From Pirellulales bacterium (GTDB lineage Bacteria; Planctomycetota; Planctomycetia; Pirellulales; Thermoguttaceae): a stretch of DNA of 19,159 nt. This document shows positions 1,688 through 19,159 of this stretch, in pieces. The stretch's first letter is position 1; the number at the start of each line of letters is the position of its first letter. Position numbers and translations under genes: made by a program. The stretch spans positions 1 through 19,159 of the forward strand of contig JAFGPV010000015.1 of assembly GCA_016936015.1 (NCBI GenBank). Reading direction: 5' to 3'. The notes beneath the pieces were generated by a model. It worked only from the letters and a program-made list of their open reading frames with translations. It searched no databases and was not told where the DNA came from.

Positions 1688-1694
1688 TAGAACG

Positions 1695-4000: not shown

Positions 4001-5347
4001 ATGCAATCCAACGACAAAACGGCGTCCTCGCGTTTGACGCGGCGGGAGGCCATCGGCCGCGGACTCTGCGGCGCGGCCGGATTGCTGCTGGCTGGCGGCT
4101 GGGAATCCCGCGCTTCGGCCGCCGCGCAACCGGTCAAGGCCAAGGCCCGGTCGGTCATCCAAATTTGGATGTGGGGCGGGCCGGCCCATCTGGATACCTT
4201 CGATCCCAAGCCCGCGGCGGGCTACGACTACTGCGGACCCTTCAGCAAGCCGATCCCCACCAACGTTCCCGGAATCACCATTGGCGAAATGCTCCCCCTG
4301 CTGGCCAAGCAGGCCGACAAGTATTCCATCATCCGCAGCATGACCCACGGCATCAACGCCCACGAAACGGCCGCCTACATCGTCCAGACCGGCCGGCCGC
4401 CGGGAGGCAGGCTGGTCTATCCGTCCGTCGGGGCCGTGGTTTCGCTGCTTAAGGGCTACGACGCCGGCTACCGCGGACTGATTCCCCCTTATATCGTCCT
4501 GACCGAACCTCAGGGCCGGTTCTCCGAGTCGGGATTCCTGGGCATCCGCTATAAACCCTTCGCCACGGGCGGCGATCCCGCCCAGGCCCGGTTCGTCGTC
4601 GAAGGCGTCGTCGCCCAGGGCGTCTCCGATGGGCAGCAGCGCAACCGCCGCGAACTGCTCCACAAGCTAAACACCCTCGGCAACGCCCTGAAGGACGATC
4701 CTGCCCTAAAGGCCCTGGACCAGGCCGAGCAGCAAGCCTACGACCTGATCCTCGGCGACGCGGGCAAGGTCTTCGACCTGGCCCGGGAGAAAGACGAGCT
4801 GCGAGAGCGCTACGGTCGGAACACCTTCGGGCAGTCCTGTCTCATGGCCCGCCGGCTGGTCGAACACGGCGTCCCGTTCGTGACGATCAATTACAAAGGT
4901 TGGGACACCCACAAGCAACATTTTCAGGCCATGCGCCGCAAGCTGCCCGAGATGGACAAGGGCCTGGCCGCCCTGCTGACGGACCTTGCGGACCGCGGAC
5001 TTTTAAGCGGCACCGTCGTCTGGTGGAGCGGCGAGTTCGGCCGCACGCCCCGGATCCAGTGGGAAGAGCCGTGGAACGGCGGCCGCGGCCACTACGGCCC
5101 GGTCTTCTCCGCGGTCGTCGCCGGCGGCGGATTCCAGGGCGGCCGCGTCGTCGGCGCCTCCGACGCCAAAGGCGAAACCGTCCAGGACCGGCCCGTCTAT
5201 CCCTGCGACCTGATCGCCGCCATCTACGAACTGCTCGGCATCGGCCCGGCCCATAAACTCCCCAATCCCGAAGGCCTCCCGCTGACGGCCGCTCCCGCCG
5301 CCGCCGAAGGCGTCCCCTCCGGCGGCCGCCTGAAAGAAATCTTGTAG
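4001..5347 (+). CDS. DUF1501 domain protein (sulfatase/alkaline-phosphatase-like fold) with a Tat signal
   Basis: ORF 3953-5347. The more likely start is the ATG at 4001, preceded by GGAGGG 8 nt upstream. It gives MQSNDKTASSRLTRREAIGRGLCGAAGLLLAGG, a twin-arginine signal. Body motifs typical of DUF1501 (IQIWMWGGPAHLDTFDPKP, GWDTH, WWSGEFGRTPR). Classic partner of DUF1549/DUF1553 proteins in Planctomycetes. Confidence 0.8.
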   Translation: MQSNDKTASSRLTRREAIGRGLCGAAGLLLAGGWESRASAAAQPVKAKARSVIQIWMWGGPAHLDTFDPKPAAGYDYCGPFSKPIPTNVPGITIGEMLPLLAKQADKYSIIRSMTHGINAHETAAYIVQTGRPPGGRLVYPSVGAVVSLLKGYDAGYRGLIPPYIVLTEPQGRFSESGFLGIRYKPFATGGDPAQARFVVEGVVAQGVSDGQQRNRRELLHKLNTLGNALKDDPALKALDQAEQQAYDLILGDAGKVFDLAREKDELRERYGRNTFGQSCLMARRLVEHGVPFVTINYKGWDTHKQHFQAMRRKLPEMDKGLAALLTDLADRGLLSGTVVWWSGEFGRTPRIQWEEPWNGGRGHYGPVFSAVVAGGGFQGGRVVGASDAKGETVQDRPVYPCDLIAAIYELLGIGPAHKLPNPEGLPLTAAPAAAEGVPSGGRLKEIL

Positions 5348-5610
5348 AAGTTGACGCTGTCAGCTCTTTCTCTCGTTTGCTTTTCTCCACACGGAGAGGA
5401 GAACTTTTCGCCGTGTGCGGCTGCGACAATTGATAGAGCCGATTTAATCGTTTTCCTTTAAAAAAACCGTCTCCGAGGCGGGAGGTGACATAAACTTAAA
5501 ATAGGATGATAGCATATAAAAACAGTCTCCGATTCCCACTCCGTGCCTGCACGAAAAGGCCAGTCTAAGAGGGAAGTATTTCCGTCAAGAAATCTTAGAA
5601 GAGGGTGCCC

Positions 5611-9531: not shown

Positions 9532-11111
9532 AAGCGATACTCCAGCCCGAAGCTGACGCCCTGCGCCCAGTAATCGCTCATGGTGAAGGAAAACGCAGGT
9601 TGCAGGGAACCGGTGGGCGTTTCGGGAGGCAACTGCGAGGCGTTCGTGTCAAGCTGGTCGGCGGGCCGCGCGACGCGGCTCCAATAGAGAAAGGCATAGC
9701 CGATTCTCGCATGGAATCGTGGAGTCAACGCATAGCCAAGTGCAACTCCAATTTCCGGCAGCACGGCGAATTGGTTCTGGGTGTACTCCCCGATGTTGGT
9801 CTCTTGCGCCAGCAGGTCGCCGGTGAACGTCGCGGTTCCTCCGCCCGGCACCGTAGTCGTCGTCATGCCGTCAATCAGCACGCGCGAGCGGGTGCTGCCC
9901 AGTCCGAGTTTCAGCAGCGCCTCCCACGACCAACGGCCGACGTACTCTCGATACATGACGCCTAGCTCGACGCCGTTGAACTGATTCTGGGTATCGAACA
10001 GGTCATAGAGGCTCTTGGTGGTGCCGACGACAATCGGCCCCTGCGACCGGGTCCATTCCGAGAACTGGTCGATTCGCACGCTCTCGTCCAACTGGGCGAA
10101 ACGCCAGCCGAAAAGAAAATCCATTCGGTCGCATTCTCGCTGAAAGAGATTGCGCCGCAACAACACCTCCACGGCCTGAAGCTGGCTTGTCGCCTCGCAA
10201 TCGAGCGATCCTCCCAAGAAGTCCGGGTGCGCAGCCAACATGGCGCTTTGGACACTAAATTGGGCGTCGTAGAATGGACGAGCGAGGATGGGCCTCTCCT
10301 GGCTGGAGGCGGAAAACCGGGTCGTCTCCTTTCCGAGGCCCAAGTAACCCGCCTCCACCCCTACGCATTGACAGTCGTCGAACCAATAACCCATGGAACC
10401 ACGCCAGCCCGAGTTCGCTTCGGTGTTAACCATGCCGTTGCCAAAAAGGATGCTCGTGCCCGGTTGCCCCAACACGCCGGACACACTCGGATCCGTGCCC
10501 TCCGGACTGGTTGTCACCAGCGGCGGCAAGGCGCTTCCTTGCGTCCACCAGAGCAAATACTCTCCGCGAACCCACAGGCGATTGTGCCAGATGAAACAGC
10601 ATGGGCGGCAAGTTCCACAGGGATAGCACTCCGCAGGACAACACTCGGCGATACATCCGTCGCCGTCAGGCATGACGTCGGCCGTCTCCTCCGAGCAGCA
10701 CGGCTGCCTCGATAGCCGGACGGGCGACATCGTCTCGTCATCAATCGTGGTTTGAAATCCTGCTTTAACAACCCGGGACGTTCGATGGGCAGGCGATCGC
10801 CGATTGGCAGAATCTCGAGAGTTCGTCGCAGTCGATTTACTGTGTTCCTGTCTCGGGACTGCATTGCGCGAACCGCGATAGGGAGTGGGCGAGTGCCGTC
10901 GAACCACTTCGCGAGATTGCAGCGCCTGCCATAACGGAGTCAAGGGACCGCTATTGTCGGTCTGGGCGAGAACCGGCCATGCATGAAGCAAGATGCCGAT
11001 GAGACTTGTTGACACGATCGCCCTGCCAACAAAGGGAGTTCCAATCGGCCAAACACGCAACTGCGGACATGCCAACTTGACCTTGACCATAGAATAGATG
11101 TCCCTATTCAC
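9528..11111 (-). CDS. BBP7-family-like outer-membrane beta-barrel protein with a Cys-rich N-terminal segment
   Basis: 527-aa ORF with a signal-peptide-like N-terminus (...AIVSTSLIGILLHAWPVLAQ). Cys cluster CCSEETADVMPDGDGCIAECCPAECYPCGTCRPCCFIW followed by RLWVRGEYLLWW. The long C-terminal part has alternating hydrophobic residues and ends ...FGLEYRF, with a C-terminal aromatic typical of OM barrels. Its stop overlaps the stop of the convergent giant gene (CTAG at 9528-9531). Confidence 0.65.
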   Translation of the reverse strand: MNRDIYSMVKVKLACPQLRVWPIGTPFVGRAIVSTSLIGILLHAWPVLAQTDNSGPLTPLWQALQSREVVRRHSPTPYRGSRNAVPRQEHSKSTATNSRDSANRRSPAHRTSRVVKAGFQTTIDDETMSPVRLSRQPCCSEETADVMPDGDGCIAECCPAECYPCGTCRPCCFIWHNRLWVRGEYLLWWTQGSALPPLVTTSPEGTDPSVSGVLGQPGTSILFGNGMVNTEANSGWRGSMGYWFDDCQCVGVEAGYLGLGKETTRFSASSQERPILARPFYDAQFSVQSAMLAAHPDFLGGSLDCEATSQLQAVEVLLRRNLFQRECDRMDFLFGWRFAQLDESVRIDQFSEWTRSQGPIVVGTTKSLYDLFDTQNQFNGVELGVMYREYVGRWSWEALLKLGLGSTRSRVLIDGMTTTTVPGGGTATFTGDLLAQETNIGEYTQNQFAVLPEIGVALGYALTPRFHARIGYAFLYWSRVARPADQLDTNASQLPPETPTGSLQPAFSFTMSDYWAQGVSFGLEYRF

Positions 11112-11650
11112 AAGCTATGCCATATTCACCAGGCAGTTTTTCCAGGAAAACAGGGCCTTTACTTTTTAAAAATGACGTAGACCATGAAACACCCCCATTG
11201 ATTGGATCTCATTTCCTGCTGGATACCACGTCAATACAATGTAAATCCACAGAGTTTATGCCGCTTGCCATATCGGCATATTCAACACCAGTCTTTAGAT
11301 ATCTACTGACCGGCAAAGTATCTGTAAAGCATTCCTGCTCCCTATTCTTCCAGGTCCACGTCATCATCCTTTTTTATCATTCGAAAATGGATGGTATTCG
11401 GGCATTGCGAGGGTGTCTCCGACCATTCAGGACAGTTGCTCAACGAGACGTCCGTCAATTCAGCCACAATACCCTTGTGCATTGGGCACAGGGAGGGCTA
11501 TGCAACGCCTAAGAATCCCCTAAAATGAGAACGTTTCGTCCATTGAAGAAGTTGAGGCTGTGACAGAACACTCGCTGGTTGATGCCAAATGTTTCTGCCA
11601 GCAGTTTTCACTTATTTCTAAAACCTTACGAAGAAAGCAGTTGCAATCAA

Positions 11651-11724
11651 GTCCCCGTAGCTCAATTGGATAGAGCGTCGGCCTCCGGAGCCGAAGGTTA
11701 CAGGTTCGAATCCTGTCGGGGATA
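11651..11724 (+). tRNA. tRNA-Arg(CCG)
   Basis: GTCCCCG TA GCTC AATTGGATA GAGC G TCGGC CTCCGGA GCCGA AGGTT ACAGG TTCGAAT CCTGT CGGGGAT A. Canonical cloverleaf with U8, A14, GG and a GTTCGAATC T-loop. G1.U72 wobble at the top of the acceptor stem. CCA is not encoded. Sits in a low-GC intergenic island. Confidence 0.85.
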
Positions 11725-12182
11725 TTTCTCCTTATTATGCAACGACTTACAACAATTGGGCGGATGGCTTCTGTTTATGTAAGTCATTATTCTTCGATGA
11801 GAGCTTCGGCACAAGGAGTGCTTCATCACAAGAGGCGCTGAGTCTACAGTAGGTGGCGGTTTCCCCGTTTATCCGGCGCGGCAGGTCATCCGGTGAAAGA
11901 CGTGTTTCCCGCACCGTGCCCGGTGTGCAGTATAGGACATCCCAATCCCGCAGGATAATGAAAAACAAGAGAAACTTGCGAAACCGGCATTCACGCTAAA
12001 CTGCGAACTGAAGATCGAGTTGGCCGCCCAAGAGCGGGAATAGGCCAGGGCGGCTACCACAAACGATACCTGGAACTACGGTCACTTCTTGAAACCTGCC
12101 TTAACCGGACTTGTCTATCACGAGTTGCACGAAAACCGGGAAAATCCAAAAATCGGCGGACGAACTCATACAGCCGGTTTGC

Positions 12183-13853
12183 TCATTGTTTCTCTTGAAG
12201 CAGGATTTTCCGCGATTGTCCGGGCTTGATGGAAATTTTTCTGCCGTCGATCAAGTCGGCGCCGGAGACGACGGTCGGGGGTTCGTCGTCGAGTGTGAGT
12301 TGATATTCTTTCTCCTTCCGTACGACGTACCACTGGGGGATTTCATTAATCCGCGCCCAGTCGATCGTGGCCAGTGGATATTCGTTCCGCGGTCCGTCGA
12401 AACAAAGCCGGCCCGACCAGGCGTCTTTCGACTGCACCACGAGCCGCAAGACGCCGTCCGTCCGGACGGCGCCGCAGCCCAATCCTTCCTGGTAGGGCAC
12501 GGCCCGGACGCCTTGCGACTGGAGCATCATGTGGGCGCAGAGGTTCCGGCCGATGCAGCCGTCGGTATGGCCGCCGACGCCGGGACCAAAATGGGAACTC
12601 GCCTTGCGGCGGAAGCCTCCGACTTTTGTGGTCCAGTCGAGCCATGGGGCGACGTCCGGTACGTCGGGATAACGTTTCCAGAGAATGATCATGCTTTCGT
12701 ACGTGTCGCCGAAGCAACCCGGCGCGAAGTTCCAAGGCCACTCGACGTTCCTCAATTCATCGAATCGCGAACGGTTTTCCGTGAGATAGCGCATTGGCTT
12801 TTCCACGGCTTCGCGATAGCGGTTGCCGCCGGTGGCCCGATCGAAGTTCTCCAAGGCAAACAACACGTAGCCCCAGCAGTGCGGCACGTCAGGACTGAAT
12901 TTGGCCCCGAACCTGCCGGGGCGTTTGAGTTTTTGCGGCTTCCCCTGGTTCTTCGGCTGAGGGCCTTCCAGATTGGCATGGGTGTACCACAAGCCGGATT
13001 TCGGATGCCGGCCCACTTCGAGCAGGCGGTCCAGTAACCGTTGCAGATTCTTCCGGTAGGTGTTCACCTTGGGCCGTTTCAGTTTTGACTCCATCACAAA
13101 CAACTCCGACAGGCCGGGAACCAGTTCGCAGCCGTGATCCACGAAGTTGAACTTCTTGATCTTTTTCAGCGGGTCGTCCAGGAGATAGCAATCGGCCAGG
13201 ACCTCGGCGTCGTCGAGATACTCGGTCCGGCCCGACATGGCCGACAGGCGGACTAGGATCTGAATCAAATTGCCCTCGTCCTCGGTTCCATGCACGATTG
13301 TATGGATTCCGCCGCGGCGTCGGCCTTCGGCCAACACGGCGTCGGTCAATCGCACAAACTCGCGGAACCAATCGTTGTCCGTCCCGATGACCTCCGTGAT
13401 TCGCAGCAATCCGTCGCGGAGCCACTCGCACACTGCGCCCACATCCACCTTGCCGGGCGTCATCGTCCTCAAATCATAGGTGCAGGGAATTCCCGATTTG
13501 GTCGCACAGAGCCGGATCGAATCGAGCAGCGTCGCCCGCAGCTTTCCGTCGCCCTCGTTCAAGACCGGCTCCAAGTAATGGGCGATCAGCACCAAGGAGG
13601 AATAATGGTCGGCGGCCTCGTTTTGATAGTTCCAAACAGACCCGCGGCTGAAAAGATGCGTTTGAGGATCCTGTTTCCTCTCGATCCAACCGTGGAGCAG
13701 CCGGAACGCGCTGTTTCCGCAATCGGCATACGTCTCGCAACGCTCTTGGGCGGTTTGCCAAACCGACTCCCCGGAAGGAGCCGCCGGCGCGCTCCCGCCG
13801 AGCGCCGTCGCCAAGAGGAGAAAACCGGTTCTTGTTAGTGTGCGAGACTTCAT
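12183..13853 (-). CDS. Secreted hypothetical protein, possibly an (alpha/alpha)-toroid glycoside-hydrolase-like enzyme
   Basis: ORF 12183-13934. The probable start is M28 at 13853, giving MKSRTLTRTGFLLLATALGGSAPAAPS as a signal peptide. About 556 aa with W/Y/H/D-rich motifs (WYTHANLEG, HCWGYVLFALENFD) that fit a carbohydrate-active enzyme. The family could not be assigned by eye. Confidence 0.55.
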   Translation of the reverse strand: MKSRTLTRTGFLLLATALGGSAPAAPSGESVWQTAQERCETYADCGNSAFRLLHGWIERKQDPQTHLFSRGSVWNYQNEAADHYSSLVLIAHYLEPVLNEGDGKLRATLLDSIRLCATKSGIPCTYDLRTMTPGKVDVGAVCEWLRDGLLRITEVIGTDNDWFREFVRLTDAVLAEGRRRGGIHTIVHGTEDEGNLIQILVRLSAMSGRTEYLDDAEVLADCYLLDDPLKKIKKFNFVDHGCELVPGLSELFVMESKLKRPKVNTYRKNLQRLLDRLLEVGRHPKSGLWYTHANLEGPQPKNQGKPQKLKRPGRFGAKFSPDVPHCWGYVLFALENFDRATGGNRYREAVEKPMRYLTENRSRFDELRNVEWPWNFAPGCFGDTYESMIILWKRYPDVPDVAPWLDWTTKVGGFRRKASSHFGPGVGGHTDGCIGRNLCAHMMLQSQGVRAVPYQEGLGCGAVRTDGVLRLVVQSKDAWSGRLCFDGPRNEYPLATIDWARINEIPQWYVVRKEKEYQLTLDDEPPTVVSGADLIDGRKISIKPGQSRKILLQEKQ

Positions 13854-14052
13854 AGTTGATCCCATGATCCTGTACGAGGTAAGAATTCCTTCAACGCATG
13901 ATATTCTATTATACACGGAGATTGCCGCATGCAAACGCTGCTATAAAACCACGGTCTTGAGAAAGGCGTCCTCCTCACTTGCATGTTGAACAAATCAGAG
14001 CAACCCGGGAAGCACCGAAACTTGCGAGATTTTTTCATCGATTGATATGATG

Positions 14053-14098
14053 AGGAGAAAAAAATACCCGGAGGTCGGGATGGATCCCTTCCTCCGGG
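14053..14098 (-). terminator. Rho-independent terminator downstream of the SPFH gene
   Basis: On the minus strand: CCCGGAGG-(17 nt loop)-CCTCCGGG, then TATTTTTTTCTCC immediately after the SPFH stop (14117-14119). Confidence 0.55.
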
Positions 14099-14116
14099 TT
14101 TCGACTTTCTGGTTAA

Positions 14117-15229
14117 TCAGAGCAGGTTGACCACCCGCTCGGCCAAGCCCTTTTCGCCCAACACGACGTTGAGCTTGCCGCCGGCGGCGACCTTCTCCAG
14201 GACCTCCAACTCCCGGAGCCGCATCAGGGTCGGGTTGCCTTCCAACAGCTTGGCCGTGTTGGCCTGGCTGCGCATGGCGGCCGTCTCCTCGCGGCGGACG
14301 ATCAGGTTGGCCTCGGCAGCCTTCTTGGCCTCCGTGACCTTGTTCATCAGGTCCTTCATGTCGCCCGGCAGGATCACGTCGCGGATGCCGGCCGAGACGA
14401 TCTCCAGACCCAACGCGGCCACGCGCCGACGGACAGTCTCTTCCATTTCCCGGGCCACCGCGTCCTTGTCGGTGAGGAACTGGTCAAGTTCACGGGCCGT
14501 CAGGGCCGTGCGCAGGGCCAACTGGGCCTCACGGTAGAGGGCCTGACGGACGTCGTCGGCCACGCTGACCGCCTTCCGCGGATCAACCACACGGTAGGTG
14601 ACCACGGCGTTCATACGAAGCGTGACCTTGTCGGCCGTCATAATCTCCTGGCCGGCCATGTCGAGCATGGTCTCGCGGAGGTCAAGTTCAACCACCTTGG
14701 CGTCGGCCGTGTTACGCCAGAAGGCGTACAGGCCCGAGGCCAACGTCTCGACGTACCGACCGTCGTAGAACAGAACACCGGCCGTGTTCCGCTCGACCAG
14801 GCAGACGTCAAGCAACCGATCAGCATACGGCGAGCGGACGATGACCGGCAGCTCGTCGTGGGTGAACCGTACCGACCGGGCGTCGACCACCTCGACCTTG
14901 ACCTCGCGGTGGCCGGTCCAGTAGGCGTGCAGACCCGGCGGCAGGACGTGGCTGAACCGACCGTCGATCCAGACCAGAGCCCGTTGGTAATCCTTCAGGT
15001 CGAGGACCACGGCGCGGTCCTTCAGCGCACCCGACTTGACGATCACGTCGAGCTTATCGTGGGCCAGCCACGGGGCACGCTGTGAGACGACCTCGACGCG
15101 GACCTTGTCCAGCGGATCGAAGAACCAGTATCGGCCCTCGCCCAACAGGCTCTTGAACTCGCCGTCGCGGAAGTACAGGCCCATTTCGTAGCTGCGGATT
15201 TTAACAATCTTGAACATCTTGAGAGTCAT
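14117..15229 (-). CDS. SPFH/band-7 (stomatin/prohibitin/HflKC-like) protein without a TM segment and with a triplicated N-terminal SPFH strand segment
   Basis: 370 aa. Strong SD (AAGGAGG, 5 nt, ATG). Three about-50-aa repeats (YFRDGEFKSLLGEGRYWFFDPLDKVRVEVV / VWIDGRFSHVLPPGLHAYWTGHREVKVEVVD / LFYDGRYVETLASGLYAFWRNTADAKVVELD), each like the PGLHFxxP-VxxVDLR start of an SPFH domain. Then a canonical SPFH core (QEIMTADKVTLRMNAVVTYRVVDPRKAV...) and a C-terminal coiled region (AKKAAEANLIVRREETAAMR...). No hydrophobic anchor. Confidence 0.85.
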   Translation of the reverse strand: MTLKMFKIVKIRSYEMGLYFRDGEFKSLLGEGRYWFFDPLDKVRVEVVSQRAPWLAHDKLDVIVKSGALKDRAVVLDLKDYQRALVWIDGRFSHVLPPGLHAYWTGHREVKVEVVDARSVRFTHDELPVIVRSPYADRLLDVCLVERNTAGVLFYDGRYVETLASGLYAFWRNTADAKVVELDLRETMLDMAGQEIMTADKVTLRMNAVVTYRVVDPRKAVSVADDVRQALYREAQLALRTALTARELDQFLTDKDAVAREMEETVRRRVAALGLEIVSAGIRDVILPGDMKDLMNKVTEAKKAAEANLIVRREETAAMRSQANTAKLLEGNPTLMRLRELEVLEKVAAGGKLNVVLGEKGLAERVVNLL

Positions 15230-15633
15230 CCTCGACCTCCTTTCTTGTACAGTCGCCGGCCAATACGACCTTCAGGCGGCGGAACGCACGCTGGTCACAC
15301 GTCCGGTTGCGGAGTGCATTTGAGCATCCGCAGGCTTACCGGTTTGCGGCAACTCAGTTCTGATTGATTGGACCTGCTGCCCCCTCGCGCATGATCAAAA
15401 CCAATATTGCCGCAACGCCGGCAGCCGGCGGAAGCGGTATCCATACACTACAGGGCACCCGAAGGTGCTGCCGCGACATGGTGAAAAAACCTCGGCAGAT
15501 TCATTCCAGTTTCCAGCCCGAAGACTGGTTGCCGGAAATCCTCCGCTTCGATGTTCCCTGCCATGCCGGCAGCCGACCTGACGAACGTCCACCGCCCTCC
15601 GGCCTACCGTTGGGCACAGGTTGCTACCTGTTG

Positions 15634-15705
15634 GTGTTGGTACGGGAATCGAACCCGCGACAGCCAGATTCTTGTCTGGTGCTCTAACCTCTGAGCTAAC
15701 CTGGG
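15634..15705 (-). pseudogene. tRNA-like remnant (degenerate: 6-nt anticodon loop, unpaired acceptor stem)
   Basis: Reverse complement has a perfect D-arm TA GCTC AGAGGTTA GAGC A and a T-arm GCGGG TTCGATT CCCGT. The anticodon arm is CCAGA CAAGAA TCTGG, a 6-nt loop. The 5' CCCAGGT does not pair with the 3' ACCAACA. Confidence 0.3.
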
Positions 15706-15812
15706 GTGACGCCGTTGTCAGTCATAACCCATTACGGAACACACGCCGCCGACCGCCTCTTGCAAGGACGGGACGCCGTGCGCCATTGGGCGGCATTACC
15801 TTCCTTAATAAA

Positions 15813-15883
15813 AGACGCCGGTGGGAGTCGAACCCACTTCGATCGGGTTGCAGCCGATTGCCGCGCCGTCTGGCTCCAGCGTC
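15813..15883 (-). tRNA. tRNA-Cys(GCA), atypical D region
   Basis: GACGCTG GA GCC AGACGGCGC GGC A ATCGG CTGCAAC CCGAT CGAA GTGGG TTCGACT CCCAC CGGCGTC U. Anticodon GCA and discriminator U73 fit the Cys identity. G8 and a 3-bp D-stem are unusual. One U.G pair in the acceptor stem. Confidence 0.5.
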
Positions 15884-15931
15884 GTTCGCTTGTTACGGCC
15901 ACTATGTTTCATTGGCCGCACGCTATTAAAA

Positions 15932-16005
15932 TGTCCTCGCCAGGAGTCGAACCTGGTCTTCGACCTTCGCAGGGTCGCGTGCGTAGTCCGCCACACTCCG
16001 AGGAC
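15932..16005 (-). tRNA. tRNA-Arg(GCG), unusual anticodon
   Basis: GTCCTCG GA GTGT GGCGGACTAC GCAC G CGACC CTGCGAA GGTCG AAGA CCAGG TTCGACT CCTGG CGAGGAC A. G8 instead of U8. Same architecture as the neighbouring Arg(TCG) gene. Confidence 0.5.
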
Positions 16006-16047
16006 GGGTTTTCCTTTCTAGGGCCGGTTTGAAACCGGCCCCACGAG

Positions 16048-16119
16048 TACCCTGCCGAGGAATCGAACCTCGTCTGGCAGATTCGAAGTCTGCCGTGCGA
16101 TCCGGCACACTCGCAGGGC
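16048..16119 (-). tRNA. tRNA-Arg(TCG)
   Basis: GCCCTGC GA GTGT GCCGGATC GCAC G GCAGA CTTCGAA TCTGC CAGA CGAGG TTCGATT CCTCG GCAGGGT A. G1.U72 and G8. Confidence 0.55.
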
Positions 16120-16149
16120 GTGTTTTCATTGTCTTTTGCTGATTTCCTA

Positions 16150-16178
16150 TTGCTCTTCACAAGGGGATTGGTATAATG
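16150..16178 (+). promoter_or_regulatory. Sigma70-like promoter with an extended -10 (TTGCTC - 17 nt - TGgTATAAT)
   Basis: ttgctc at 16150-16155, a 17-nt spacer, tataat at 16173-16178 preceded by TGG. Points away from the tRNA array orientation, towards the Zn-ribbon mini-ORF. Confidence 0.4.
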
Positions 16179-16380
16179 GCTGAAAATTACATTCGGCAGG
16201 AGTCGGATCGCTTTATCCTTTCGGAACCGAGCACTCCGAAAGTTCGCTCTCTTGGCTCAACTGATGCGACAGTCATCGGCTTCTCCCAATCCTCAGGCGC
16301 GTCCCCCGCCGTTTGCATAACATCTTATTTGTGATTGGATTTGTGCGTCTTCGACCAAGGTTTTTAGCTGCGCTCATGTT

Positions 16381-16683
16381 GTGCCGCTCCCTTCAGACCT
16401 TTTGGGCATAAGCCACCCAAAAGTATTTCTCTCGGCTTACGTAATGTTCTATTGCCGTTTGTGCGGGCGTCTGGTCCCTCCGCGGACTCGTGCTGTTCGT
16501 AAGGTTCTTCAAACGCGATTAAAGCGGTATCCTTATCGCTCGAAAGCGAATCATGTCGTCCGGATCGAACCCAACGGAAAAAGGAAAAAGGTATACGTGG
16601 ATGACCCCGGCGGCGAAGGCCGGGAAATCGTCCACGAGGTACTGGTTTGTCCTCAATGTGCCAAATTCAATGATCCATCCTAA
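16381..16683 (+). CDS. Small, very basic Zn-ribbon protein (two CxxC pairs). The start is uncertain: GTG at 16381 or ATG at 16444.
   Basis: 80-100 aa: ...MFYCRLCGRLVPPRTRAVRKVLQTRLKRYPYRSKANHVVRIEPNGKRKKVYVDDPGGEGREIVHEVLVCPQCAKFNDPS. CRLC and CPQC at either end. A promoter lies upstream and a strong intrinsic terminator follows the TAA directly. The unit fills the gap between two minus-strand tRNA genes. No SD. Confidence 0.45.
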   Translation: MPLPSDLLGISHPKVFLSAYVMFYCRLCGRLVPPRTRAVRKVLQTRLKRYPYRSKANHVVRIEPNGKRKKVYVDDPGGEGREIVHEVLVCPQCAKFNDPS

Positions 16684-16696
16684 AAGTGTCGCTCTA

Positions 16697-16731
16697 CCTT
16701 GCCGCATAAAACGCGGCAAGGTTTTTTCTTT
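16697..16731 (+). terminator. Rho-independent terminator (CCTTGCCGC-ATAAAAC-GCGGCAAGG + TTTTTTCTTTT)
   Basis: 9-bp GC-rich stem, 7-nt loop, T-tract. It lies 14 nt after the stop of the Zn-ribbon ORF and 17 nt before the next minus-strand tRNA. Confidence 0.6.
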
Positions 16732-16747
16732 TCCTTACCGATTGGAA

Positions 16748-16819
16748 TATCCCGACCTGGAGTCGAACCAGGACATGGACCTTCGGAGGGTCCGATGCAC
16801 TCCACTACACTATCGGGAC
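16748..16819 (-). tRNA. tRNA-Arg(CCG), second copy in the window, array version
   Basis: GTCCCGA TA GTGT AGTGGAG TGCAT C GGACC CTCCGAA GGTCC ATGT CCTGG TTCGACT CCAGG TCGGGAT A. G1.U72. Weak D-stem with two G.U pairs. Confidence 0.5.
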
Positions 16820-16904
16820 TCCTCACCAGAGCCGACGACTGGATTTGCACCAGCATGATGCGGTTTACAAAACCGCTGCCTTGCTGTTCGGCCACGTCGG
16901 CAAG

Positions 16905-16974
16905 CAGGAGTGCAAGGATTCGAACCCTGTGGGACGGCTTTGGAGACCGTCGGCTCTCCCAGGAGCACACTCCT
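16905..16974 (-). tRNA. tRNA-Trp(CCA), compressed D-arm
   Basis: AGGAGTG TG CTC CTGGGA GAG CCG ACGGT CTCCAAA GCCGT CCCA CAGGG TTCGAAT CCTTG CACTCCT G. The anticodon arm is almost identical to bacterial tRNA-Trp. Discriminator G73. 70 nt, with a 3-bp D-stem, a 6-nt D-loop and 3 nt where position 26 should be. Confidence 0.5.
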
Positions 16975-17015
16975 GTAATGCCCCCGACCGTTTGGCCGGG
17001 GGCACGGCGTAACGA

Positions 17016-17612
17016 CTACTTCTGCAACTCAACGTTCCAGTACACTTCGCTAACGAACTTCGACCAGCTTGCGATCCGCAGGCTGTGGTCGGCGTACAAC
17101 GGTTTCCATACCGGTCGGACCGGCTTGCGGCGCAACCGCATTCGGGCCTGCTCCGGCGTGCGGTCGGCCTTACGCTTGTTGCAGGCCATGCAGGCCAGCA
17201 CGCAGTTCTCCCAACTCGACACGCCGCCCTGCGACCGCGGCAGGACGTGGTCGATGGTCAGCTCCTCGCTGCCCGGCTGGGCACCGCAGTACTGACAGGT
17301 GCTGTGATCCCGCTTGAACACGTTCCGGCGACTGAAGGTCACCGCGGCCCGCGGCAACCGGTCATAGCCGGTCAGCGTAACCACCTCCGGCACGCGGAGT
17401 CGAAAGCGGACCGCCTGGACGAACGGCTCGTCGGCGCGCGGCATGAGCCTCAACCAATCCTCCCAGGTGTAGAGTTGGAAGTCGTCGGGATCGACCACGC
17501 GGGCCGACTCGTTCCACAACAGGACCAAGGCCCGTGCCACCGTGGCGACGTGGACCGGCTGCCAGTTGCGGTTCAGGACCAGCGTGGGACGCCGAAGCAC
17601 ACTCCGTACCAT
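17016..17612 (-). CDS. HNH endonuclease
   Basis: The ORF extends to 17690, but the likely start is M27 at 17612 (GGGAG 8 nt upstream), giving MVRSVLRRPTLVLNRNWQP... HNH signature CQYCG...LTIDHVLPRSQGG...WENCVLACMACNKRK. About 198 aa. Embedded in the tRNA array in the same orientation. Confidence 0.8.
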   Translation of the reverse strand: MVRSVLRRPTLVLNRNWQPVHVATVARALVLLWNESARVVDPDDFQLYTWEDWLRLMPRADEPFVQAVRFRLRVPEVVTLTGYDRLPRAAVTFSRRNVFKRDHSTCQYCGAQPGSEELTIDHVLPRSQGGVSSWENCVLACMACNKRKADRTPEQARMRLRRKPVRPVWKPLYADHSLRIASWSKFVSEVYWNVELQK

Positions 17613-17700
17613 GATTATTCTCCCTACATATTGGTTCACTCTCATCAAGCGAATCCGGACTTTCGTCATTCGACATTTGAACTTCGTCATTTTCCTCCAG

Positions 17701-17775
17701 GGTGTCTGGCCGGAGTCGAACCGGCACCCTCTGGTTCACAGCCAGCCGTGCAGGAACCGCTACACCACAGACACC
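17701..17775 (-). tRNA. tRNA-His(GTG) with encoded G-1
   Basis: G GTGTCTG TG GTGT AGCGGTTCCT GCAC G GCTGG CTGTGAA CCAGA GGGT GCCGG TTCGACT CCGGC CAGACAC C. The extra 5' G opposite discriminator C73 is the His hallmark. Confidence 0.8.
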
Positions 17776-17781
17776 GTCAGT

Positions 17782-17864
17782 AGGGATTAGAGGCGAGGGA
17801 TTAGGGATTAGTAATGACACCACATCGGGTTTTGCTAATCCCTAATCCCCAATCCCTAAATCCC
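17782..17864. repeat. Hairpin element with heptamer-repeat arms, (A)GGGATT units, and a 23-nt loop
   Basis: agggattagaggcgagggattagggattag - taatgacaccacatcgggttttg - ctaatccctaatccccaatccctaaatccc. Imperfect inverted arms of about 30 nt built from tandem 7-mers. Sits between tRNA-His and tRNA-Arg(TCT). Confidence 0.6.
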
Positions 17865-17873
17865 TTTCACCAG

Positions 17874-17945
17874 CACCCCGACCAGGACTCGAACCCGGAA
17901 CTCCTCGTTAGAACCGAGGCATGATGTCCGTTTCACCATCGGGGC
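17874..17945 (-). tRNA. tRNA-Arg(TCT)
   Basis: GCCCCGA TG GTGA AACGGACA TCAT G CCTCG GTTCTAA CGAGG AGTT CCGGG TTCGAGT CCTGG TCGGGGT G. G1.U72 and G32. Confidence 0.55.
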
Positions 17946-17948
17946 AAG

Positions 17949-18038
17949 CGGAAGGCATGGGATTCGAACCCACATGGCCCCTTACGGGGCCGCACGGTTT
18001 AGCAAACCGGCCCGGCAAACCGTATCCGGCTACCTTCC
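17949..18038 (-). tRNA. tRNA-Ser(GCT), type II
   Basis: GGAAGGT AG CCGG ATACGGTTTG CCGG G CCGGT TTGCTAA ACCGT GCGGCCCCGTAAGGGGCCA GTGGG TTCGAAT CCCAT GCCTTCC G. Long variable-arm hairpin. Discriminator G. Only 3 nt separate it from the previous gene. Confidence 0.65.
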
Positions 18039-18050
18039 GAAGTTTCACAG

Positions 18051-18123
18051 TGATCCCGGACGGAATTGAACCGTCACTTTCCTGGTTGTCACCCAGGTGT
18101 CTTTACCGTTAGACCACGGGATC
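18051..18123 (-). tRNA. tRNA-Val(GAC)
   Basis: GATCCCG TG GTCT AACGGTAA AGAC A CCTGG GTGACAA CCAGG AAAGT GACGG TTCAATT CCGTC CGGGATC A. Fully canonical. Confidence 0.85.
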
Positions 18124-18133
18124 GTCATCGCAA

Positions 18134-18209
18134 TGACGAGAGCGGGAGTCGAACCCGCAAAATCACGAGGCTCTCGACCTCGCCGCTTTTCCAGTTTGCG
18201 TACCTCGTC
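18134..18209 (-). tRNA. Leu-like tRNA (anticodon GAG) with a type-II D-arm but a short variable region and C33
   Basis: GACGAGG TA CGC AAACTGGAAAA GCG G CGAGG TCGAGAG CCTCG TGATTTT GCGGG TTCGACT CCCGC TCTCGTC A. Discriminator A73 (Leu identity). 7-nt variable region instead of a long arm. Paralog of the gene at 18641-18716. Confidence 0.4.
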
Positions 18210-18216
18210 CTAAGTT

Positions 18217-18282
18217 GCGGGTCCGGGGGTTGCACCCGGTGAGCAGAGCTTATGAAGCTCCACTGGGCACTGGCCGACCCGC
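18217..18282 (-). pseudogene. tRNA-like element with CAT anticodon loop, no D-arm, non-standard T-loop
   Basis: Reverse complement GCGGGTC...GGAGC TTCATAA GCTCT...CCGGG TGCAACC CCCGG ACCCGC. Perfect 7-bp acceptor pairing GCGGGTC/GACCCGC. Anticodon loop TTCATAA. The D region CCAGTGCCCAGT cannot form a D-stem. 66 nt. Confidence 0.25.
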
Positions 18283-18293
18283 GGCGTATTCAG

Positions 18294-18363
18294 TTGCAGG
18301 CCCCGGTATCGAACCGGGCGCACCGGCCTTATGGGAGCCAGTTGGGCACCTGCCGCGCCTGCA
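18294..18363 (-). tRNA. tRNA-Met/Ile2-like (anticodon CAT) with a degenerate D-arm and C33
   Basis: TGCAGGC GC GGCAGGTGCCCAAC TGGCT CCCATAA GGCCG GTGCG CCCGG TTCGATA CCGGG GCCTGCA A. Perfect acceptor and T-arm. No pairable D-stem. 70 nt. Confidence 0.3.
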
Positions 18364-18370
18364 GCGACAG

Positions 18371-18454
18371 TGACCAAGGGGAGATTCGAACTCCCAAGCC
18401 CTTTAAGGCACGACGTTCTGAGCGTCGCGCGTCTTCCAGTTGCGCCACTTGGTC
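18371..18454 (-). tRNA. tRNA-Leu(CAG), type II
   Basis: GACCAAG TG GCG CAACTGGAAGA CGC G CGACG CTCAGAA CGTCG TGCCTTAAAGGGCTT GGGAG TTCGAAT CTCCC CTTGGTC A. Canonical. Confidence 0.8.
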
Positions 18455-18464
18455 ATTTCTTCAG

Positions 18465-18538
18465 TGGCCCGTGCGGGAATTGAACCCGCCTTTCCGGCTT
18501 GAGGGGCCAGCGTCCTAAGGCCGATAGACGAACGGGCC
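18465..18538 (-). tRNA. tRNA-Glu(CTC), C33
   Basis: GGCCCGT TC GTCT ATCGGCCTTA GGAC G CTGGC CCCTCAA GCCGG AAAG GCGGG TTCAATT CCCGC ACGGGCC A. The D-arm closely resembles E. coli tRNA-Glu. Confidence 0.6.
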
Positions 18539-18548
18539 GGTTTTTCAG

Positions 18549-18635
18549 TGGGTCGTGAAGGAATTGAACCTCTCGTCGTCCACCTCACTTCTTTTGCGAC
18601 AACGGCTTTACGGGCCGCCGTGAGGAACACAACCC
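18549..18635 (-). tRNA. tRNA-Tyr-like (anticodon GTA) with a truncated D region and an oversized variable arm
   Basis: GGGTTGT GT TCCTCACG GCGGC CCGTAAA GCCGT TGTCGCAAAAGAAGTGAGGTGGACGAC AGAGG TTCAATT CCTTC ACGACCC A. 87 nt. Only 8 nt where the D-arm should be. Weak T-stem. C33. Confidence 0.35.
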
Positions 18636-18640
18636 TCCAG

Positions 18641-18716
18641 TGGCACAGACGGGAGTCGAACCCGCAAAATCACGAAGGTTTGAGCTTGGCCGCTTTTCCG
18701 ATTTGCGTACCGTGCC
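18641..18716 (-). tRNA. Leu-like tRNA (anticodon CAA), type-II D-arm but short variable region
   Basis: GGCACGG TA CGC AAATCGGAAAA GCG G CCAAG CTCAAAC CTTCG TGATTTT GCGGG TTCGACT CCCGT CTGTGCC A. Near-identical backbone to the gene at 18134-18209. Discriminator A73. Confidence 0.4.
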
Positions 18717-18730
18717 TCACTTTTCCAAAG

Positions 18731-18805
18731 CGCCCTCGACGGGATTTGAACCCGCGATCTCCTGCGTGACAGGCAGGCGAGCACTCCAAGCTGCTCCACA
18801 AGGGC
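18731..18805 (-). tRNA. tRNA-Asp(GTC)
   Basis: GCCCTTG TG GAGC AGCTTGGAGT GCTC G CCTGC CTGTCAC GCAGG AGATC GCGGG TTCAAAT CCCGT CGAGGGC G. Canonical. Discriminator G73. Confidence 0.85.
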
Positions 18806-18810
18806 ATGAT

Positions 18811-18923
18811 CGGAGGGATGAAGGATGAAGGATGAGGGATGAGGAAACTCAACCATATCCAGATCAATCCTTCATTCATCCTTCATCCCTCATCCTTCAT
18901 CCCTCATCCTTCATCCCTCATCC
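18811..18923. repeat. Hairpin element made of tandem heptamers GGATGA(A/G) and their complement TCATCC(C/T), with a 24-nt loop
   Basis: Left arm ggagggatgaaggatgaaggatgagggatgagg. Loop aaactcaaccatatccagatcaat. Right arm ccttcattcatccttcatccctcatccttcatccctcatccttcatccctcatcc, about 7.5 heptamer units. Same architecture as the element at 17782-17864. Confidence 0.6.
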
Positions 18924-18925
18924 AG

Positions 18926-18998
18926 TGGTCCTGGGCGGACTCGAACCGCCGATCGTCACCTTGTAAGGGTGCTGCCGTCGCCGCTGGGCCACAGGACC
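18926..18998 (-). tRNA. tRNA-Val(TAC)
   Basis: GGTCCTG TG GCCC AGCGGCGA CGGC A GCACC CTTACAA GGTGA CGATC GGCGG TTCGAGT CCGCC CAGGACC A. Confidence 0.75.
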
Positions 18999-19009
18999 AT
19001 AATTCAAAG

Positions 19010-19095
19010 CGGAAGCCGTGGGACTCGAACCCATAAGCGGCTGCTCGCCGCCACCTGTTTTCAAGACAGGCTCCTCATCCGGCCGGATGACTTCC
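19010..19095 (-). tRNA. tRNA-Ser(TGA), type II
   Basis: GGAAGTC A TCC GGCCGGATGA GGA G CCTGT CTTGAAA ACAGG TGGCGGCGAGCAGCCGCT TGGG TTCGAGT CCCA C GGCTTCC G. The acceptor and anticodon arms are nearly identical to E. coli tRNA-Ser(UGA). Only one nucleotide lies between the acceptor and the D-stem. Confidence 0.65.
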
Positions 19096-19105
19096 GTCTG
19101 TGAAG

Positions 19106-19159
19106 CTGCGGGAGCTGGACTTGAACCAACATGACGACGTTCAGAGCGTCGCATCCTGC
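19106..19159 (-). tRNA. tRNA-Gln(CTG), 3' part only (5' end lies beyond the window edge)
   Basis: ...CGACG CTCTGAA CGTCG TCAT GTTGG TTCAAGT CCAGC TCCCGCA G. The window ends inside the D-arm. Confidence 0.5.

Follow-up and report, generated by a model that had tools for sequence, protein, structure and literature searches.

The window analysed here is a 19,159-nt stretch of a Pirellulales bacterium of the Thermoguttaceae (assembly GCA_016936015.1, contig JAFGPV010000015.1, positions 1 to 19,159), and it ends in a dense run of tRNA genes on the minus strand. This run, from tRNA-Gln(CTG) onward, is the 3′ part of a tRNA array that is long and confined to one strand (an L-array or tRNA array unit), and the array is a conserved cassette of ~9 kb belonging to Pirellulales/Thermoguttaceae planctomycetes. 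An HNH endonuclease gene is embedded among the tRNAs, and a gene for a tRNA-like RNA followed by an SPFH/Band-7 gene closes the unit. Several array members break near-universal rules of tRNA structure, and comparison of orthologous sequences argues that they form a tRNA lineage of their own, in which selection, not random decay, accounts for the non-canonical traits.

At its default settings, ARAGORN called 17 minus-strand tRNA genes between 15813 and 19095, and a single one, on the plus strand, in the remaining 15.6 kb of the window. The Rfam tRNA covariance model placed 13 minus-strand genes above its gathering score (E-values to 4e-13) and returned an additional truncated match at 15639-15701; a permissive Rfam scan gave weaker matches for Trp, Arg-GCG, Arg-TCG, both Ser genes and a 5′-cut tRNA at the edge. 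Two Met-CAT-like genes with tiny D-arms (18293-18363 and 18214-18283) were gained at the 90 % ARAGORN threshold, and alignment to related arrays identified 19106-19159 as a fragment of tRNA-Gln(CTG) and 18539-18639 as a divergent Tyr-GTA-like element. Calls made at the 80 % threshold within the HNH gene and on the opposite strand were judged false positives, as was a 'Thr-TGT(-)' call within the SPFH coding region of two related loci (L012 and L015), for which there is no Rfam support. Altogether, the array (15627-19159, minus strand) comprises 22 tRNA or tRNA-like elements in 3.5 kb, one HNH gene, two long spacer hairpins and one foreign insertion, with all elements on the minus strand and inter-tRNA spacers mostly of 2-15 nt. 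The original prediction, made by reading the sequence of the window, had put about 19 such genes in the same 3.5 kb and had the array continue past the window edge. The array is real and somewhat richer than that, and its Gln-CTG gene is indeed cut by the edge, complete relatives holding 35-40 tRNAs.

With 22 elements (17 at the default ARAGORN stringency) and ~6 elements/kb over 15627-19159 (~5/kb with the default calls alone), the array exceeds both values by which Tran et al. (2016; PMC4758250) define an array unit, at least 20 tRNA genes and at least 2 per kb. It also has the layout of an L-array: a long run in one orientation, spacing close enough for co-transcription, no periodic order and a companion HNH endonuclease gene (17016-17612) inside the array. 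Its assignment to the arrays of bacteria and phages, not to a dispersed housekeeping set, had been proposed from the first reading and is borne out by this density, by the HNH gene, by a canonical duplicate of tRNA-Arg(CCG) 5 kb away and by homologous arrays in other planctomycetes. Base composition, put forward at the same time as a means of telling the array from the rest of the contig, does not make it stand out, its G+C of 0.53-0.61 not being distinct from that of the flanks or the rest of the window.

The features of the array and of the gene that terminates the conserved unit are listed below from the window edge inwards (labels such as L010 denote loci used for comparison).

19106-19159, minus strand: 3′ part of tRNA-Gln(CTG); 5′-cut match to Rfam tRNA positions 18-71 (24.9 bits); aligns with the Gln-CTG preceding Ser-TGA in L010, L015 and L020
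19009-19095, minus strand: tRNA-Ser(TGA) with long variable arm; ARAGORN, sub-threshold Rfam tRNA-Sec match (43.4 bits); slot shared with related arrays
18925-18998, minus strand: tRNA-Val(TAC), canonical-looking; ARAGORN, Rfam 59.1 bits
18806-18924, minus strand: spacer hairpin 1, GGATGA(A/G) heptamers and their inverted complement; inverted arms, fold
18730-18805, minus strand: tRNA-Asp(GTC); ARAGORN, Rfam 57.9 bits
18640-18716, minus strand: tRNA-Leu(CAA) with short, class-I-like variable region; ARAGORN, Rfam 43.1 bits
18539-18639, minus strand: divergent Tyr-GTA-like element, possibly decayed; Tyr-GTA slot of the consensus order, weak Rfam tRNA-Sec match (21.4 bits)
18464-18538, minus strand: tRNA-Glu(CTC) with C33; ARAGORN, Rfam 49.6 bits
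18370-18454, minus strand: tRNA-Leu(CAG) with long variable arm; ARAGORN, Rfam 48.4 bits
18293-18363, minus strand: Met-CAT-like tRNA A; ARAGORN at 90 % threshold
18214-18283, minus strand: Met-CAT-like tRNA B; ARAGORN at 90 % threshold
18134-18209, minus strand: tRNA-Leu(GAG) with short variable region and C33; ARAGORN, Rfam 42.3 bits
18050-18123, minus strand: tRNA-Val(GAC), the most canonical member; Rfam 67.6 bits
17948-18038, minus strand: tRNA-Ser(GCT); ARAGORN, sub-threshold Rfam tRNA-Sec match (42.7 bits)
17873-17945, minus strand: tRNA-Arg(TCT) with G1.U72; ARAGORN, Rfam 51.1 bits
17775-17872, minus strand: spacer hairpin 2, GGGATTA repeats and their complement; inverted repeat, fold
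17700-17774, minus strand: tRNA-His(GTG) with encoded G-1; ARAGORN, Rfam 54.7 bits
17016-17612, minus strand: HNH endonuclease gene, 198 aa; Pfam HNH, HNH_5 and HNH_4
16904-16974, minus strand: tRNA-Trp(CCA) with 6-nt D-loop and low score; ARAGORN, Rfam 29.9 bits
16829-16901, minus strand: tRNA-Thr(TGT); ARAGORN, Rfam 57.6 bits
16748-16819, minus strand: tRNA-Arg(CCG), array copy, with G1.U72; Rfam 49.7 bits
16120-16747, no strand assigned: insertion particular to the window copy; lower G+C (0.53), unmatched in related loci
16047-16119, minus strand: tRNA-Arg(TCG) with G8 and G1.U72; ARAGORN
15932-16005, minus strand: tRNA-Arg(GCG) with G8; ARAGORN, Rfam 25.9 bits
15813-15883, minus strand: tRNA-Cys(GCA) with G8, last true tRNA of the array; Rfam 46 bits
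15627-15707, minus strand: tRNA-like RNA gene; matches Rfam tRNA positions 5-66 only (39.4 bits), orthologue alignment, covariance model
14117-15229, minus strand: SPFH/Band-7 (slipin-like) gene, 370 aa, terminal gene of the conserved unit; Pfam Band_7

None of the array genes encodes CCA, most having C-U after the discriminator; the canonical tRNA-Arg of the host is likewise without it. Among the members at first regarded as canonical, the G-1 of tRNA-His is confirmed; the two tRNA-Ser genes are not plainly canonical, as Rfam matches them below threshold to its tRNA-Sec model (~43 bits) and not to the tRNA model. Standard annotation is expected to miss or mislabel about a quarter of the members, the Met-like genes, the Tyr-like element and the tRNA-like RNA being examples.

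Conservation of the cassette and of its non-canonical tRNAs

Scanning one genome per species for homologues of the HNH gene yielded 478 loci, and the best 80 were examined for tRNAs. At least 10 same-strand tRNAs, and up to 40, surround the HNH gene in 31 of these 80, with 4-9 in a further six. Gene order is shared across at least 31 Pirellulales/Thermoguttaceae loci, and in all four contexts of close HNH homologues drawn from metagenomes or metagenome-assembled genomes (MAGs), the HNH gene lies within a same-strand array that has the gene order of the window. The consensus begins with Phe, Glu, Pro, Pro, Ile, Lys, Ile, Lys, Thr, Gly, Pro, Asn, Ser, Gly, Gln and Gln, continues with Ser-TGA, Val, Leu-TAA, Leu-TAG, Asp, Leu-CAA, Tyr, Glu-CTC, Leu-CAG, one or two Met-like genes, Leu-GAG and Val-GAC, and then reads Thr-GGT, Ala, Ala, Ser-GCT, Arg-TCT, His and HNH, tRNA-His(GTG) being the final gene ahead of HNH in nearly all arrays. 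Beyond HNH follow Trp, Thr-TGT, Arg-CCT, Arg-CCG, Arg-TCG/ACG, Arg-GCG and Cys, with three to five Arg genes. A cassette of ~9 kb therefore holds ~32 tRNAs from Phe-GAA to His-GTG, the HNH gene, the six or seven post-HNH tRNAs, the tRNA-like RNA and the SPFH/Band-7 gene. Some genomes carry up to three arrays, and a 7.5-Mb Thermoguttaceae contig (JAXGXG010000001.1) has two. Paralogous copies within a genome are 94-95 % identical over a stretch of ~9 kb that begins ~1.2 kb ahead of Phe-GAA and ends shortly after the SPFH gene, which is also where synteny with the window stops. The presence of several copies per genome, together with variable flanks, nearby transposases or an integrase and one viral contig, would favour horizontal transfer; the coherence and age of the array-linked HNH group (below) speak against it.

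Long tRNA arrays are already known, including in Planctomycetes, which Tran et al. (2016; PMC4758250) listed among the phyla with a few array-bearing genomes. The array of the window resembles the units of that survey (including the arrays on Acidithiobacillus integrative and conjugative elements) in number and density of genes; however, the planctomycete cases were treated there as rare independent insertions, whereas the cassette described here is conserved and syntenic in dozens of species-level genomes. Our search of the literature returned no description of this conserved cassette, of its embedded HNH gene, of its tail made up of an SPFH gene and a tRNA-like RNA, or of non-canonical tRNAs under selection. 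What is new is the conserved cassette with its rule-breaking tRNAs and its SPFH link.

Some loci depart from the common layout. At L039 (10677) and L040 (5947), both from Pirellulales, all that follows the HNH gene is one array-type tRNA-Cys(GCA) with G8, representing either a minimal array or a remnant. L002/L003 (GCA_043955465.1, a 370-kb contig) is phage-like, with many small open reading frames (ORFs), and bears a dispersed array that keeps the same relative order around its HNH gene. The region also carries a transfer-messenger RNA (tmRNA; tag AKPSFAMAA), a Thg1-like gene and methyltransferases, and could represent a huge phage or else some large mobile element with a relationship to the cassette.

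Nearly all of the structural oddities noticed at first reading proved correct. Cys, Arg-GCG and Arg-TCG do have G8; C33 is present in four genes (Glu-CTC, Leu-GAG, Met-like A and the Tyr-like element); the 6-nt anticodon loop belongs to the tRNA-like element at 15627-15707; both Met-like genes and the Tyr-like element have truncated or absent D-arms; and Leu-CAA and Leu-GAG are without a long variable arm. The G1.U72 pair, ascribed to four Arg genes, occurs in three (TCT, CCG and TCG), Arg-GCG having G1-C72.

The deviant positions are largely fixed in each slot of the array. G8 is invariant in Cys (16/16 distinct orthologues, with compensatory changes at 7 of 20 pairs), in Arg-TCG (all 17 true orthologues aligned) and in Arg-GCG (20/20 distinct orthologues). 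C33 of Glu-CTC is kept in most of 22 distinct orthologues, and by one count 22 of 23 true orthologues of Leu-GAG combine C33 with a short variable region, the short region being universal. The long arm is missing from Leu-CAA in all 20 distinct orthologues; a non-array Leu-CAA in L024 is 83 nt long and possesses it. For Trp-CCA, the same sequence type recurs in 23 other distinct orthologues. G1.U72 in the Arg genes, unlike the G8 and C33 traits, varies between species.

Both Met-like genes, the sole Met-CAT-type genes of the arrays, fold as cloverleaves. Gene A has a 7-bp acceptor stem, a 3-bp D-stem, a 4-nt D-loop and C33, and 6 of its 22 predicted pairs show compensatory changes among 12 distinct orthologues. 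Gene B has a 1:72 mismatch, a 4-bp D-stem with a 4-nt loop and a T-loop, UGCAACC, without the usual U55; here, too, 6 pairs, out of 21 predicted, show compensatory changes (15 distinct orthologues). The Tyr-like element, with a 7-bp acceptor stem, no D-arm and the anticodon loop CCGUAAA (C33), aligns with Tyr-GTA orthologues in the anticodon and T regions only, and its fold has a z of -1.1. Since the odd traits are traits of the slot across species and the stems change in a compensatory manner, purifying selection on RNA structure, and hence function, is suggested. Structural constraint is no proof of aminoacylation or decoding. The original prediction had been set to fall if gene finders gave every member a canonical score with standard U8 and U33; because the deviant positions are conserved in orthologues, that test does not apply as worded.

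Some tRNA genes of related arrays contain hairpins. At L015 (9116-9282), and between Leu-CAG and Leu-GAG in L017, L024 and L065, the anticodon loop of a Met-like gene is swapped for a hairpin of ~24 nt (GGGCACCGACCGAAGGTTGGTC), and the arrays of MAG MFD00082.bin.2.49 have extra hairpins in the variable regions of Arg-CCG, Arg-TCG and Glu-CTC (L017 7207 and 7304; L065 3865). These could be intron-like or mobile mini-elements.

The array appears to be supernumerary. A canonical tRNA-Arg(CCG) at 11651-11724 (plus strand), surrounded by AT-rich sequence (G+C ~0.48) at a distance of 4 kb from the cassette end, scores 71.7 bits against 49.7 for the array Arg-CCG at 16748-16819, to which it is 54 % identical. 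The non-array tRNAs that neighbour other arrays reach 60-79 bits, where the median of array members is ~50, and include Lys-TTT, Arg-CCT, Val-GAC, Leu-CAA (with the long arm) and Leu-TAG, all of which duplicate array anticodons. From these duplicates in the window and beside other arrays, we infer a complete housekeeping set. Whether canonical copies of the array isoacceptors exist elsewhere in the genome had been raised at the outset; within the window and among array-adjacent tRNAs, the answer is positive for Arg-CCG and for these five anticodons, respectively. The array is thus not a sole source of isoacceptors with canonical features, given the Arg-CCG duplicate in the window and the G8, C33 and miniature D-arms of its members.

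An enrichment for codons rare in a GC-rich genome, as first proposed, does not survive comparison with complete arrays, in which 35-40 tRNAs cover nearly all amino acids with a near-full anticodon set. That idea fails because complete arrays decode GC-rich codons as well (Leu-CAG, Arg-GCG, Arg-CCG, Pro-CGG, Gly-GCC and Ala-GGC), the window showing the downstream part only.

The HNH gene and the SPFH-linked tRNA-like RNA

The HNH gene lies between His and Trp, and its likely start at 17612 gives a protein of 198 aa, in which a Cas9/IscB-type HNH domain is joined to an uncharacterised N-terminal domain of 95 aa. The NCBIfam models 'guided_IscB' and Cas9d match the HNH region below their cut-offs, the best sequence match in the PDB is an IscB, and the fold matches returned by Foldseek are the HNH domains of Cas9 and IscB. 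In size and HNH domain the protein agrees with IshB, a protein of the IscB/OMEGA lineage that has ~180-200 aa and joins a PLMP domain to an HNH domain. Its N-terminus resembles PLMP at the level of motifs alone (LVLNRNWQPV / VVVFSKNYLPL followed by RA..LL). A phmmer alignment of the N-terminus to the IscB PLMP region was non-significant, a profile of it run against the PDB returned chance CarD matches and no IscB, and no Pfam match to the domain was found at E values up to 10. AlphaFold modelled the N-terminus with low confidence (pLDDT, the predicted local distance difference test, of 50-58), and Foldseek matched the HNH domain only. Kinship with PLMP and IshB at the N-terminus is hence a lead, not a finding. 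No TnpA or end of an IS200/605 element was seen around the gene, the flanks being tRNA genes or, in non-array relatives, cinA.

More than 7900 homologues of the HNH protein were found; those of the best 120 clusters are 77-88 % identical (87-88 % for the closest), all ~198 aa long and, where named, planctomycete. HNH is the commonest coding companion of tRNA arrays (PMC8421152, PMC5966550), and more distant homologues (35-43 % identity) sit beside arrays of 24-31 tRNAs on plasmids of Nostoc, Mycolicibacterium and Acidiphilium. The array units of Mycobacterium chromosomes, plasmids and mycobacteriophages (Morgado and Vicente 2018, PMC5966550) are alike in the density of their tRNA genes and in having HNH as their most widespread companion, the homologue on plasmid pCBMA213_1 being 35 % identical and placed among 29 tRNAs; genes for translation rescue (tmRNA, Pth, RF-1) occur near some of them. 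They differ from the planctomycete cassette in phylum, in gene order, in being interrupted by several coding genes and in being borne on plasmids or phages.

A nuclease gene embedded among tRNA genes also recalls the homing endonucleases of phages T4 (SegB), T5 and the mycobacteriophages. SegB cleaves inside tRNA genes, and its own spread carries adjacent tRNA genes along (as cited in PMC8421152); however, it is a GIY-YIG enzyme, whereas the planctomycete protein is of the Cas9/IscB type and extremely conserved in sequence. The planctomycete gene has, moreover, a close non-array paralogue or orthologue, which is unusual for a selfish gene: in Isosphaerales, Planctomycetales and related groups, a stand-alone relative divergently adjoins cinA at 36 loci (L042-L088) with no tRNA within 10 kb (e.g. 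L075, Tundrisphaera lichenicola, HNH at 10001-10591 and cinA at 8503-9759 on the opposite strand). The cinA-adjacent proteins are ~67 % identical on average to the array-embedded ones and 69-75 % to that of the window. Mean identity within the array-linked group is 78 % and within the cinA-adjacent group 80 %, and the nearest neighbour of a protein almost always comes from its own group. As the array group is as old and coherent as the cinA group, the HNH sequences suggest that the array has long been resident in Pirellulales.

The tRNA-like RNA (15627-15707) was analysed by alignment and a consensus fold of 17 orthologues. It has an acceptor stem of only 3 bp, with normal D, anticodon and T arms, and is always positioned just upstream of the SPFH gene. 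Its 'anticodon' differs between species, the loop being of 6 nt in the window copy, and because of this variation ARAGORN calls it Leu, Asp, His, Phe or 'Stop'. A covariance model (R1) built from 17 copies scores 78-104 bits in 18 sources, which are exactly those with the SPFH gene (18/18); ordinary tRNAs reach at most 66 bits.

The SPFH gene occupies the same position in at least 15 related loci, at 71-80 % identity. Across 93 % of its length, its product shares 35 % identity with the 'slipin family protein' of Citrobacter and Escherichia coli, and in Citrobacter freundii the slipin gene sits between rtcR, which encodes the activator of RNA repair, and a nucleotidyltransferase gene. The planctomycete gene is accordingly homologous to an RtcR-linked slipin, and a small tRNA-like RNA, its apparent cognate, adjoins it. 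Burroughs and Aravind reportedly described in 2016 SPFH modules with a cognate tRNA-like RNA in RNA-repair systems. The pairing, and the RNA-related neighbours of related arrays, are reminiscent of the RtcR/slipin loci and of the Ro60/Y-RNA module of Salmonella (rsr-yrlBA-rtcBA), from which the planctomycete module differs in its fusion to a 40-gene tRNA array. These neighbours are Ro60/TROVE (~8 loci), RlaP (4 loci) and Tpt1, with Thg1 and tmRNA in the phage-like L002. The genes for a Ro60/TROVE-vWA protein, an RlaP nucleotidyltransferase and Tpt1 (RNA 2′-phosphotransferase) lie at L001 12042-13655, L034 2877-4727, L015 18217-19431 and L004 13501-14100. Wadjet (JetABCD) and Bub ubiquitin-like defence genes were also seen near the arrays of L001 and L004.

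In the enterobacterial rtcR-slipin loci, Rfam detected no tRNA-like RNA at E values up to 1, and the Citrobacter region folds no better than shuffled sequence. R1 found a T-arm-like hairpin only (10.3 bits) in the Citrobacter rtcR-slipin spacer; at L091 5817-5831 (C. freundii), upstream of the slipin gene, this is a perfect hairpin of T-arm type (UGGGUUCGAUUCCCA), and it may belong to a small tRNA-like RNA of that locus. Equivalence of the planctomycete and enterobacterial RNAs is not established.

Possible function and competing explanations

Of the long tRNA arrays, only that on plasmid delta of Anabaena (Nostoc) sp. PCC 7120 has been studied functionally (HNH gene all8564; Santamaria-Gomez et al. 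2021, PMC8421152). It comes on only when translation is impaired; it then provides 23 aminoacylated tRNAs and helps the cell survive, and both its HNH gene and rtcB share its regulation (PMC8421152). The planctomycete cassette resembles it in being same-strand, apparently supernumerary and aperiodic, in its near-complete anticodon set and in having an HNH gene of the same family, the homologue on the Nostoc plasmid being ~37 % identical and directly upstream of 24 tRNAs. A link to RNA repair is also common to both, through co-regulation with rtcB in Nostoc and through the SPFH, Ro60, RlaP and Tpt1 neighbours in planctomycetes. They differ, in that the planctomycete HNH gene is inside the array between His and Trp and not upstream of it, gene order is unrelated and the planctomycete cassette ends in a tRNA-like RNA and an SPFH gene. 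Furthermore, the planctomycete cassette resides on the chromosome, is frequently present in more than one copy and seems to extend across the order Pirellulales instead of occurring sporadically, and several of its members have reduced D-arms, G8 or C33.

By analogy with the Anabaena array, and considering the neighbours of RNA-repair type, a role as an alternative tRNA pool is likely. Taking all the evidence together, we regard as probable a conserved supernumerary L-array cassette that supplies such a pool under translational stress or RNA damage. The array would be transcribed as one or two polycistronic precursors, with a promoter predicted ahead of Phe-GAA and a possible second one in front of HNH or Trp, and these RNase P and RNase Z would cut and to which CCA would be added post-transcriptionally. 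The product would be a second, structurally distinct set of tRNAs able to sustain translation when the housekeeping pool or the ribosome is compromised by stress, tRNA-cleaving toxins or phage. The SPFH protein and the tRNA-like RNA may then act as an accessory of the RNA-damage-response type, and the HNH protein may cut DNA at or near tRNA genes, so that recombinational copying maintains or spreads the cassette.

Several observations weigh against this explanation. Relative to the consensus, the window copy looks partly eroded: it lacks Leu-TAA, Leu-TAG, Thr-GGT, Arg-CCT and the Ala genes, its Tyr slot is degenerate, the loop of the tRNA-like RNA has 6 nt, and the downstream block is interrupted by an insertion of ~630 bp that brings in an antisense gene with a terminator-like hairpin. 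Within the window, no promoter-like site was found in the array part and, in contrast to the RtcR repair loci, there is no gene for RtcB, RtcR, a nucleotidyltransferase or a ligase. Lastly, the divergence pattern of the HNH proteins favours long vertical residence over the frequent horizontal transfer that is the hallmark of L-arrays, and their conservation fits a selfish homing nuclease poorly.

A bolder version, which we offer tentatively and hold to be doubtful, would make the cassette a self-contained unit for emergency translation and RNA-damage response. Its deviant tRNAs would be charged and used by the ribosome, with shapes that escape tRNA-targeting nucleases or modification-dependent toxins; the SPFH protein and the tRNA-like RNA would form a sensor or scaffold, and the HNH protein would be tied to tRNA or to the tRNA-like RNA by guidance or recognition rather than serve plain homing. 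If this were true, tRNA architectures regarded as peculiar to organelles would be acceptable to bacteria too, and a concrete function could be assigned to L-arrays.

It is unlikely, in our assessment, that the array is instead part of a prophage or mobile element and serves the translation of a phage, through codon use or by replacing destroyed host tRNAs, and not that of the host. Such an origin would suit the IMG/VR contig L089, on which both the array and the SPFH gene recur and a gene for the terminase large subunit lies at a distance of 7 kb, and the phage-like 370-kb L002, where the HNH gene around which the array is dispersed is 79 % identical. HNH homologues occur in 392 phage records, 237 of them from mycobacteriophages, and the flanks of some copies contain an integrase, transposases and defence islands (Wadjet, Bub). 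However, 2.9 million viral contigs gave a single match, and the window contains no phage structural, packaging, integrase or recombinase gene, PHROGs matching only the HNH gene and, weakly, the SPFH gene. The flanks are ordinary planctomycete genes, and the duplicated unit measures only ~9 kb and ends at the SPFH gene.

Quite unlikely, too, is a decaying relic, an array acquired once from a phage or plasmid whose members are now drifting pseudogenes with mutations at the odd positions. In 15-25 distinct orthologues, drawn from different species, these 'defects' are found again, while the stems carry compensatory substitutions; gene order is kept across the 31 or more loci; and the embedded HNH protein is strongly conserved in sequence and length over its best 120 clusters. 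Decay would account for the lower scores of array members on the tRNA model relative to neighbouring housekeeping tRNAs, and for the degenerate Tyr slot, missing members and foreign insertion of the window copy. The SPFH gene is frameshifted in L012, L023 and L065, and 3 of the 26 genes of the Anabaena array are pseudogenes (PMC8421152).

We give little credence to a non-decoding role, in which the tRNAs would be decoys or sponges for tRNA-targeting nucleases, an idea raised by the authors of the Anabaena study (PMC8421152), or substrates or signals for the SPFH/RNA-repair machinery. For the SPFH-adjacent tRNA-like RNA the case is apparent, as it cannot decode with a freely varying 'anticodon' and an acceptor stem of 3 bp, and many true members deviate at positions relevant to the ribosome or to modification (U33, U8). 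Yet the anticodons of true members are strictly conserved per slot and jointly make a near-complete decoding set, and discriminator bases and identity-type features such as the G-1 of His are kept, as expected of tRNAs that are charged and used. An ordinary housekeeping operon, larger than usual and unlinked to rRNA, is highly improbable: complete arrays do serve almost every amino acid, the array seems to be ancient and widespread through the order Pirellulales, and genes without CCA are usual in the host as well, but the canonical tRNA-Arg(CCG) 5 kb away shares its anticodon with an array gene of only 54 % identity, high-scoring duplicates of array anticodons adjoin other arrays, some genomes have two or three copies in varying contexts and the only Met-CAT-type genes of the arrays are the two elements with reduced D-arms.

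For the study of tRNA, a syntenic and deeply conserved array of ~40 genes amounts to dozens of natural replicates, in which the comparative signal separates selected traits from decay. It presents bacterial tRNAs that, under structural constraint, depart from features found almost everywhere (U8, U33, a complete D-arm, long-arm tRNA-Leu) and that, if functional, challenge both the assumptions of tRNA gene finders and the identity rules of aminoacyl-tRNA synthetases. The fusion of the array to an SPFH gene and a tRNA-like RNA, with kin in RtcR-type repair, provides a testable tie between spare tRNA sets and the RNA-damage response.

Insertion, spacer hairpins and flanking sequence

The insertion at 16120-16747 contains a plus-strand ORF (16381-16683) that is antisense to the array and encodes 100 aa with two CxxC pairs, reminiscent of a zinc ribbon. 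A terminator-like hairpin (16696-16722, plus strand; 10-bp stem and T-run) follows it. No DNA or protein match to the insertion was found in 89 related loci, and the ORF matched no family. Promoter and terminator predictions were in no excess over shuffled sequence, this hairpin alone standing out.

The genes flanking the cassette belong to families typical of planctomycetes (PSD1/PSCyt2, DUF1501 and BBP7 proteins). Between the cassette and the canonical tRNA-Arg lies an ORF (12183-13934, minus strand) of 583 aa with an N-terminal hydrophobic segment, unmatched in Pfam, NCBIfam, PADLOC and PHROGs and without a counterpart in related loci. An island border was looked for at the canonical tRNA-Arg(CCG), but neither an integrase nor a repeat of the tRNA 3′ end was found within the window; the conserved unit ends at the SPFH gene.

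The two spacer hairpins are stable relative to shuffled sequence. In the heptamer hairpin (18806-18924), arms of 32 nt are 94 % complementary (-65.5 kcal/mol, z = -5.8), and the element attracts spurious miRNA-like Rfam matches; the second (17775-17872) is formed by the inverted repeat 17781-17804 / 17835-17858 (-42.4 kcal/mol, z = -4.6). Neither is constant in the family. L019, L023 and L009 have similar low-complexity palindromes of different sequence, L001, L004, L015 and L020 have none, and, given this uneven occurrence among related arrays, these hairpins look like sporadic insertions or expansions.

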